Positions 15,001 through 18,000 of a DNA stretch of 64,000 bases are shown in pieces. The position numbers are program-made. The DNA lies in the NCBI GenBank assembly GCA_963753345.1, contig CAVWBU010000031.1, positions 1-64,000 on the forward strand. Reading direction: 5' to 3'. Position 1 is the stretch's first letter. Every line of letters starts with the position of its first letter. Source of the stretch: an uncultured Fibrobacterota bacterium (GTDB taxonomy: Bacteria > Fibrobacterota > Chitinivibrionia > Chitinivibrionales > FEN-1185).

Positions 15001-18000
15001 GCCCAGCACGCGGTCGATTTCCGAAAACGGGCTCGCGATGCGGTCCGATTCGTCAACCGTGCAGCCGGAAAACGCCACCACCTCCGACGGCGTCGAGGCT
15101 GTCGCGCGCGACGTCGGCGTCGCCTTGACGCCGCGCATTTCGACGATGGTGTCCCACGCGCCGCAGCTGGTGCACCTGCCCAGCCACTTGGAAAAGTCCT
15201 GGCCGCAGTTGTTGCAGACGTAAACGGTGGAGGGTTTTTTGTTCATTGATGGTTCTGGAACACGTCGGATTTATTGAAATGAAGTTGATGATCCGTGGTT
15301 TTCAGGTTGTTGAAAGTTGACATTTGAAAGTTCAAAGTGATTCTTTTCGTGATTTTCTTTCAACTTCAAACTTCCAACGTTCAACCCGGTTTTACGCCGA
15401 TTTCGGAAGCTCCATCACTTCCACGCGGTTGCCGCCGTTCTTCCTCGCGCGGAGCAGGGCCTGCCCGCACGCCTTGGACAAAAGGTCGGGCGACGCGCTG
15501 ATCTCGCTGCACATGCACGCCCCAGCGGAAATCACCGGATGCACGTAGTTTCCGTCCGGGGCCTTGATCGACATGTCCATGAGGCGTTTGCGGACGTGGT
15601 CGACGGTCTTTCCGAGTGAGTCCGGGTCCGCCTTGGTGAGGATAAGACCGAATTCGTCGCTTGAAAAACGGCCTGCGCTGTCTGCGCCGCGGGTAGTGAG
15701 GCCCAGTTTCCTGCCGACTTCGCGGACGATAACTTCGCAGAACTGCTGGCCGAAGCGGTCGCCGAGGTCCTTGAGCATGTCGATGCCGAACAGCGTGAGC
15801 GCAATGGGGTCCTGCTCCACAACGGAGCGCTCGATCTCGTCCTTGAGCACGGTGGCGAACTGCTGAAACCCCATGAGGCCGGTGAGCGCATCGCGCGAGG
15901 CCGCGTCGAAGCTGCGGTCGCGCCGAAGCTTGCGGTCGAGCGTCACGCGCTGCCGAATTTCGCCAACGTCAACCGACCGCGTGAGCCCCGAGCCCTCGTC
16001 GGGCTCGCTGCCCGCCACGTAGTGGAGTTTGCGCTGGCCGCGTATGAACTGCTGTATATAGGGATTGCGCGACGCGCGGATCTCGGCGGGCGTGCCCGAA
16101 AAAATGATTTTTCCTTCGTAAATCATGGCGATCTTGTCGGCGATCTTGTAGGCCGACGCCATGTCGTGGGTGACCACCACCGAGGTCATCCCGAGCCTTT
16201 CCCTCAGGGAAAGGATGAGGTCGTTGATCTTGTCGGTCATGATGGGATCGAGCGCGCTGGTGGGCTCGTCGTACAGCATGATCTCGGGCCGCATCACGAG
16301 CGCGCGCGCAAGGCCCACGCGGCCCCTCATACCGCCCGACAGCTCCGACGGCATCTTGACCCTGAAGCCGGGCTGCAGCCCCACCATCTCGAGCGCCTCG
16401 GCCACGATCTGGGCGATTTTCTCCTCGGAATAGTCGGTGTGCTCCCGCAGCGGGAACGCGAGGTTTTCGCCCACGTCCTTGGAGTCGAACAGCGCGGCGC
16501 CCTGGAACAGCATGCCGAGGCGCTTGCGCACGGTCTCGAAATCCGACGGTTTTTTCGTGGGAGAGGATATTTCCTCTCCGTCAATAAGGATGCGGCCTCC
16601 GTCCGGGATCATGAGGCCGATGACGTGCTTGAGGATGACGCTCTTGCCGCCGCCGCTCTGGCCGATGATGCAGACAATCTCGCCCTTGTCCACCTCGAGG
16701 TTGATGTCGTCGAGAACGGGCTGGTTTCCAAAGCGTTTTTTCAGGTGTTCTATCTTGAGCATGCCGCAAAATTCCTGTCGACAATCAAAAAATAGGTCTC
16801 AAAACACGAGAAACGCGATAATGAAATCGAAAATAAGGATGAGCACGAACGACGTAATGACCGCCTTGGTGGTCGCGTTGCCCACGCCCTCGGCGCCGCC
16901 GCGCGTCTCCAGGCCGAAATGACACCCGGTGAGCGCGATGATGGCGCCGAACACCGAGGTCTTTGCCACGCCGATGAGCAGGTCGGCCGGGTTGAAGAGC
17001 ATCCGGAGGCCGGTAAAATAAACGTACAGGGTGATCTTTACGGAAAACACGACGGTAAGGATGGAGCTTACGAAGGCGATGAGTTCGCTCCAGACCACGA
17101 GCAGGGGGAGCATCGTCATGCAGGCGATCATTTTGGGAACATACAGGTAACGCACCGGGTCGAGGTTGAGGCATGTCATTGCGTCAAGCTGCTCGCCGGT
17201 CTTCATGGCGCCGATCTCGGCCGCGATCGCGGTGGCGATGCGCCCGGCCACCACCATGCTCGTGAACACCGGCCCGATCTCGGTGATGAGCGTCTTGCAC
17301 ACGGCAAGGCCGAGGTACTTGAGGGGGATGAAGCCGGAGAACTGGTACACGCCCTGCGTGACCGTGGTCGCGCCCGTAAAGATGGCGATCACCGACACCA
17401 GGGGGAGCGAATCGATGCCGATGGCGTACATCTGCTCGATGGACAGCGGCACGTTCTTCACCATGAGCGGCAGGCGTTTCACGATGCTTGACAGAAGCAT
17501 CGAAATGCGGTGCACGTGCCGAAGAAAGACGGCGCCGTTGCCTGCGACGGCAATCCCCGCGGCTCCCACGCGGGAGACGAAGCGTACCATAGGGTTCAAA
17601 AGTCGGCACCCTCCCCGGCGCGGGGCGCCGCGAGGTTTTCAAACCGTGCGTATTGCTTGACAAAGGCAAGATTTATCGACCCAATGGGGCCGTTGCGCTG
17701 CTTGCCGATGATGATTTCGGCGGTGCCCTGCTTCGACGGGTCGTAGAACTCCTCGCGGAACACGAACATCACCACGTCGGCGTCCTGTTCGATGGCGCCG
17801 GACTCGCGCAAATCGGAAAGCTGGGGCTTGTGGTCGCCGCCGCGCTGCTCCGGCGCGCGCGACAACTGCGACAGCGCGATGAGCGGCACCTCGAGCTCCT
17901 TGGCGATGCCCTTGAGCGAGCGAGAAATCTGCGAAATCTCCTGCTGCCGGTTTTCCATCCGCACCGACGACTCCATGAGCTGCAGGTAGTCCACAATGAC

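Follow-up and report, generated by a model that had tools for sequence, protein, structure and literature searches.

Genes and domain architecture of the locus

The window analysed here, which is the whole 64,000-nucleotide stretch of DNA from an uncultured Fibrobacterota bacterium, carries on its minus strand a gene whose product joins an MlaF-type ABC ATPase to a degenerate GGDEF domain (GGDEF*). The gene and its neighbours are as follows.

17596..18996 (-): dnaB, the upstream neighbour (domain match; conserved dnaB-mlaE-mlaF-radA order)
16799..17599 (-): mlaE permease gene, start codon uncertain, upstream of and adjacent to the fusion gene (PF02405, E-value 3e-66, 223 bits)
15392..16762 (-): mlaF-GGDEF* fusion gene, 456 residues (ORF translation, Pfam, AlphaFold2 model)
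16037..16762 (-): MlaF/MceG-type ABC ATPase domain, residues 1-242 (sequence motifs, structural matches)
15902..16036 (-): linker, residues 243-287, a conserved tail and then a predicted helix (266-281)
15425..15901 (-): degenerate GGDEF domain, residues 288-446 (PF00990, 69 bits against a cut-off of 23.8; TIGR00254, 80 bits against a cut-off of 37.4)
13879..15246 (-): downstream neighbour (AAA_25 plus zinc ribbon; synteny), which from its domain make-up we take to be radA-like

A preliminary description of this DNA had placed an MlaF-type ATPase fused to a GGDEF domain next to mlaE, and this was confirmed by the open reading frame, by the position of mlaE and by Pfam matches above cut-off to ABC_tran (residues 17-169, 4e-31) and GGDEF (residues 288-446, 5e-19). 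An assembly artefact was rejected, as the ATPase-GGDEF junction is bridged by independent contigs from two studies, one of peat and one of freshwater sediment, and full-length open frames occur in relatives (445-478 residues in the full-length fusions); contig X1, from a peat run that is possibly the source sample, covers the whole fusion stretch, and X4 covers 15732-16418. An AlphaFold2 model from 120 sequences, which replaced an earlier fold from 26 close sequences (ATPase domain pLDDT 64.6), had two confidently folded domains (mean pLDDT 92, pTM 0.59) on a loose, low-confidence linker (pLDDT 51-74), with the orientation of the domains poorly fixed. The tail part of this linker is also present in short orthologues that have no GGDEF domain. 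The order dnaB-mlaE-mlaF-radA is common to loci of Fibrobacterota, Ignavibacteriales and Zixiibacteriota (3/3 of the loci examined from the latter two), which points to an ancient housekeeping locus to which a domain was added. Named relatives put the locus in Fibrobacterota, most being Chitinivibrionales and Chitinispirillales records. Elsewhere in the window are a BNR/sortilin-repeat protein at 9046-11695 (+), in overlapping frames (9046-11124 and 10865-11695) that may reflect a frameshift, and a short phage-integrase-family gene at 8075-8683 (+).

In the ATPase half the motifs of an ABC ATPase are intact (Walker A GQSGGGKS, Q-loop Q87, Walker B MLYDE, H-switch H199) and the signature motif reads LSGGM, a methionine there being typical of Mla- and TGD-like MCE ATPases (PMC7367683). 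Among 60 related fusions this methionine is present in 59, and the ABC motifs are intact by pattern in 56-59, the misses being fragments except for P0214 at the H-switch pattern. Foldseek matched the fusion model best to MceG and MlaF, and the best structural match was MlaFEDB 6xbd (Z 33.5, rmsd 3.4, 252 residues aligned), with MetN tied within 1 Z; these listings were dominated by the ATPase domain and barely probed the GGDEF fold. Judged by its sequence, with the ABC motifs, LSGGM and an MlaE partner, the 456-residue protein very probably serves as the ATPase subunit in a transporter of the MCE (Mla-like) type. It shares the fold, LSGGM, an mlaE neighbour and a C-terminal extension with E. 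coli MlaF (MlaFEDB) and mycobacterial MceG/Mkl, but differs from them in its folded 160-residue GGDEF* domain and in a locus that has no mlaD, mlaB, mlaC or mlaA. The system is not textbook proteobacterial Mla (MlaFEDBCA): searches for MlaC and MlaA each gave no match in this genome (94% complete), and the protein scored 193 bits against the 441-bit cut-off of the NCBIfam MlaF equivalog NF008809. The substrate is presumed to be an envelope lipid, the label "lipid transporter" deriving from family membership.

The genome holds five MlaD matches and five MlaE matches (four loci), and three of the five MlaD matches, two of them near-identical, lie away from any mlaE. An orphan mlaE (G000:C24:24711-25517) is 39% identical to that of the window and could pair with it as a heterodimer, and another paralogue (G000:C32:61308-61938) is split over two frames by a frameshift or a sequencing error. 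A near-identical stretch with mlaD, lipA-like and rpoN-like genes occurs at both G000:C29:6439-10524 and G000:C30:233-4325, through duplication or strain contamination (4.8%).

The GGDEF* domain: active site, I-site and selection

The sites within the domain on which the argument turns are listed here, with their states among the 60 fusions.

15827..15829 (-): Arg312, the secondary (cross-linking) I-site position (PleD R313); R in 44, H in 12
15680..15691 (-): I-site RxxD, R358-G-A-D361 (PleD R359/D362); R 60/60, D 60/60, 0 changes
15650..15664 (-): degenerate active-site motif SSDEF, residues 367-371 (sequence; GG(D/E)EF in none of the 60)
15596..15598 (-): His389, the third I-site position (PleD R390); R 45, G 9, H 5, S 1

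In the PDB the domain matched DosC, WspR and PleD. SSDEF had been read at the active site before, and it indeed occupies residues 367-371. Activity of PleD requires E370, D327, N335, D344, K442 and R446 (PMC7288161). By a mapping that relied on the alignments with DosC and WspR and on the range matched in PleD, rather than on a PleD alignment, the window residues at PleD D327, N335, D344, K442 and R446 are Gly326, Gly334, Glu343, Arg440 and Gly444, and D369, E370, F371 and K331 are kept. Because D327, N335, D344, R446 and the GG of the motif are lost, the domain is very unlikely to be an active diguanylate cyclase.

RxxD stands five residues ahead of SSDEF (R358-G-A-D361-S-A-G-R-F-S367-S-D-E-F371). 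The I-site had been described as intact, which holds for R358 and D361, but the site is not fully canonical, His389 standing at the position of PleD R390. Likewise, RxxD is kept in the congeners as had been noted, in the form RGSD or RGTD, with RGAD in the window protein itself. The domain resembles the receptors PopA, SgmT, PelD and BcsE in its degenerate active site, conserved RxxD and secondary Arg312, and departs from them at the third arginine (PleD R390, SgmT R794), which is His in the window copy; their outputs, moreover, are proteolysis, kinase localisation and polysaccharide secretion, and in the available parts of the sources none of them is fused to an ABC ATPase.

The comparison set of 60 Fibrobacterota-type fusions consisted of 58 proteins plus loci L017 and L023 (several rows are fragments, and P0028, which ends before the motif, was dropped). 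Across domain identities of 19-100%, 58 of the 60 have RxxD and two have RxxxD, and AGDEF or NGDEF is the active-site motif in two. R358 and D361 are two of only four invariant columns among 163 (third and fourth slowest), whereas the equivalents of D327, K332, N335, D344 and G368-E371 rank 79-148. As many of the 60 are close kin, such counts overstate independence, and changes on the tree are a fairer measure: over a tree length of 20.5 there were none at R358 or D361, four at residue 389 (the nine glycines there form a subclade), six at residue 312 and 8-18 at the catalytic positions. G359 (54/60) and the helix that follows RxxD are also conserved. Among five congeners dN/dS of the GGDEF part was 0.06-0.40 in nine of ten pairs, one being saturated, and that of the ATPase part 0.01-0.22, by a simple counting method.

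RxxD is common in GGDEF donors, so its presence alone proves little; of the 11 intact GGDEF domains of this genome, five have it in canonical form and three more with an insertion. These 11 cyclases display the reverse pattern, D327, N335, D344 and K442 each being kept in 11/11 and the I-site arginine in 8/11. That the window domain is a dead cyclase with an I-site under selection is well supported by these sequence comparisons. This much of the earlier reading of a c-di-GMP receptor that controls a transporter stands; the control of the transporter is what we infer from it.

Besides its 11 intact GGDEF domains the genome has five PilZ and 13 HD_5 matches and gave no match to EAL, such that c-di-GMP turnover may rest on HD-GYP proteins. 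Two more degenerate GGDEF proteins, of 322 and 284 residues (G000:C41:245538-245960 and G000:C23:76500-76769), have a common unannotated N-terminal region and RAVD at the I-site, and are possibly paralogous c-di-GMP receptors. In Fibrobacter succinogenes grown on cellulose, c-di-GMP was ~2.5-fold higher, and the levels of three MCE proteins were reduced 1.2- to 1.7-fold (PMC6851124); as the one locus titled with this species (L062) has a short MlaF, these data serve as context only.

Distribution and origins of the fusions

Within the order, 39 of 41 genomes carry an orthologue and eight of them the long form (G000, G002-G005, G007, G018 and G032), 30 of the 39 loci having been read and nine judged by match range. 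Across the 251 genomes of the phylum, 114 had a match (G397 among the short ones) and the fusion was found in only the same eight. The long form had been thought to run through the genus, as it does in four of the five other genus genomes, but the fifth, G001 (73% complete), gave no orthologue match. The long forms seen here beyond the genus are G007 of the same family and G018 and G032 of family f4; RxxD is retained in all three (RGTD, RGND and RGTD) and the active-site motif has decayed (ESDEF, DSDTI and GEGMI, respectively). A 463-residue open frame in G035, also of f4, is no fusion, however, but a short 294-residue MlaF without GGDEF that is extended by upstream overlap; it is probably the 463-residue copy of the preliminary description, although the two go by different handles. 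A 539-residue frame in G354 proved to be an upstream overlap as well. Short MlaF proteins are found in G006, of the same family as the window, and in five of the seven f4 genomes.

In a quick tree all but one of the GGDEF* domains taken from 18 fusions (17/18) grouped in one clade (SH-aLRT 94), next to a GAF-GAF-GGDEF cyclase of the window's own genome (support 88), and in the ATPase tree long and short forms were intermixed in f4. A single gain with several losses fits best, though gain and loss are indistinguishable in an unrooted tree; P0035 looks like a separate gain. A tblastn search with the GGDEF part gave no match to a split GGDEF gene in 22 short loci and their 1.5-kb flanks (one cut by a contig end), a weak negative since the divergent domain of L023 was also missed at this threshold.

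A deep profile search (47 of 150 matches scanned) identified ABC and GGDEF domains together in at least eight proteins, five of them on another branch of MlaF. One origin for all MlaF-GGDEF fusions was rejected by the AU test (p-AU 1e-42), and the nine Fibrobacterota-type rows as one ATPase clade had a p-AU of 0.010 (both LG+G4, groups defined by domain). G041 is a genome with a locus titled Syntrophobacteraceae, and in its phylum the long form occurs in at least 13 of 201 genomes, 44 having matched at all, a lower bound with nine candidates scored per genome. Metagenome loci L124:4459-5670 and L125:2664-3872 have fusions of this second set inside mlaE-mlaF-mlaD-(mlaC)-mlaA operons, and wider counts for the set are "at least" values among the matches listed, where proteins with two ATPase domains crowded the searches.

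L204-L215: further second-set fusions, in Thermodesulfobacteriota-type mla operons, with a variable I-site

Proteins of 500-620 residues with two tandem MlaF-like ATPase domains are themselves a large family, several coming from Myxococcales/Kofleriaceae records, and at L121:2715-3383 (-) a gene for a cNMP-binding domain sits immediately upstream of an mlaF-GGDEF* gene from the second set.

The 34 rows of the second set, which are not one GGDEF clade, also have GG(D/E)EF in none (0/34). Their I-site arginine is present in 16 and missing in 18, the aspartate is present in 22 (three rows are perhaps misaligned by one) and the third arginine in three, 31 being without it; on a tree of length 24.1 the I-site arginine changed five times with the domain retained. 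This set has often lost the arginine and yet kept the domain, so the fold can do without that residue, and finding it invariant in the first clade is therefore informative. The same rows mean that an MlaF-fused GGDEF domain can be kept without a full I-site. In a single sequence, P0044 (382 residues), an MlaF-like ATPase is preceded by a PilZ domain that contains RxxxR and DxSxxG.

A proposed mechanism and its alternatives

ABC ATPases act as dimers, so that two GGDEF* domains hang below the ATPase pair. Three known systems suggest that c-di-GMP could govern the ATPase dimer by bridging such tails. In PleD, the cross-links made by c-di-GMP dimers run from R359, D362 and R390 on one domain to R313 on its partner (PMC7288161); in E. 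coli MlaF, the tail is required for dimerisation and MlaE binding, and a GCN4 dimeriser rescues its loss (PMC7367683); in OpuA, the two ATPase domains are kept half closed by c-di-AMP bound between the CBS tails, with ATPase activity up and transport blocked (PMC7673798). By analogy, we propose that c-di-GMP, in the manner of c-di-AMP in OpuA, cross-links the two tails and so adjusts the dimerisation of the ATPase, and we give this reading a probability of roughly 0.55. The GGDEF* domain would bind c-di-GMP at R358 and D361, probably helped by residue 389, and intercalated c-di-GMP would span from R358/D361 on one tail to R312 on its partner, the arrangement known from product-inhibited PleD. 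The two ATPase domains would thereby be kept at a set distance, which would tune their assembly on MlaE or the transport cycle, the sign being either inhibition, as in OpuA, or stabilisation, like the tail handshake of E. coli MlaF. OpuA/OpuCA and the window protein as proposed are alike in joining an ABC ATPase to a C-terminal cyclic-dinucleotide receptor, in OpuA one whose ligand bridges the tails and restrains the ATPase pair; they differ in that the former bind c-di-AMP by a CBS fold and import osmolytes, and binding by the window protein is predicted. Counted against our reading are His389 in the window protein, Gly389 in 9/60 and His312 in 12/60 of the fusions, and the presence of the fusion in only 8/114 of the phylum genomes with a match. 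The retained I-site of a dead GGDEF* domain suggests that c-di-GMP may directly control lipid transport.

The alternative that fares best is a ligand-independent module, in which GGDEF* serves as a dimerisation or protein-docking domain that replaces the E. coli tail handshake or MlaB, RxxD being kept as an interface. E. coli MlaF deprived of its tail is rescued by any dimeriser (PMC7367683), and partner binding by BcsE uses a surface apart from the I-site (PMC7439463); the second set keeps the domain with an I-site arginine in fewer than half of its rows, and conservation in the first clade extends to G359 and the helix behind it. We nevertheless consider this unlikely, given that the two predicted c-di-GMP contacts both belong to the four invariant columns and that short orthologues have the same linker tail without the domain. 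Somewhat less probable still is that bound c-di-GMP acts as an address label, sequestering or localising MlaF instead of gating the ATPase cycle. PopA and SgmT, degenerate GGDEF proteins with an I-site, have a shown role in localisation, and in SgmT I-site binding altered localisation rather than kinase activity (PMC3509222); the I-site conservation fits this equally well, but MlaE already holds MlaF at the membrane, as is established for MlaFEDB, and where other ABC ATPases have regulatory domains at the C-terminus, it is the ATPase pair that these act on.

That the domain is a leftover of a fusion, tolerated while it decays and disappears, would accord with the patchy distribution and probable losses (short G006, five short f4 genomes) and with the decayed I-sites of the second set, but for the Chitinivibrionales clade it is largely refuted by purifying selection (dN/dS below 0.4), open frames and invariant RxxD, and we rate it improbable. 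A GTP sensor coupled to the transporter could be imagined as well, for which PdeA is reportedly a precedent. This, or an active non-canonical cyclase, is the most improbable reading of all: D369, E370, F371 and K331 remain in the window copy and a Vibrio AGDEF cyclase is reported to be active (PMC3974145), but D327 and N335 are replaced by Gly, D344 by Glu and R446 by Gly, and D327, N335 and D344, reported as essential (PMC7288161), drift across the fusions.

MlaF-type ATPases and I-site GGDEF domains are each known, and it is their union that is new. In the openly searchable literature we found no report of an MlaF-GGDEF fusion or of direct c-di-GMP control of an MCE ATPase, further searching agreeing in this with the preliminary description; the available text of a 2025 review of effectors (PMC12564702) had no match for "transporter" or "ABC", and the available parts of PMC12943098, PMC2853384 and bioRxiv 10.64898/2026.05.12.724550 had nothing on either subject. 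A link between c-di-GMP and an mla operon in PMC13524336 is indirect and transcriptional, unlike a sensor on the ATPase itself. The architecture is present in database annotations under plain transporter or cyclase names.

Post-translational regulation of MCE/Mla transporters is an open question (PMC7367683). The fusion is real, selected and repeatedly evolved, and from it we infer regulation of transport. It offers a concrete soluble switch, with natural variants with and without the I-site as ready-made controls; the hosts are mostly metagenome-assembled, which limits genetics. As a more tentative generalization, which we would not yet bet on, direct c-di-GMP gating of MCE/Mla lipid transport may be a recurring design, in which MlaF acquired c-di-GMP-binding modules on several separate occasions (GGDEF* in Chitinivibrionales, in mla operons of Thermodesulfobacteriota and in other rows, PilZ on one occasion), tying envelope lipid flux to the switch from motile to attached life at the ATPase dimer. 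If the GGDEF* domain does bind c-di-GMP and gate the ATPase, it would be the c-di-GMP counterpart of the c-di-AMP control of OpuA, and would link lifestyle signalling to envelope lipid transport.
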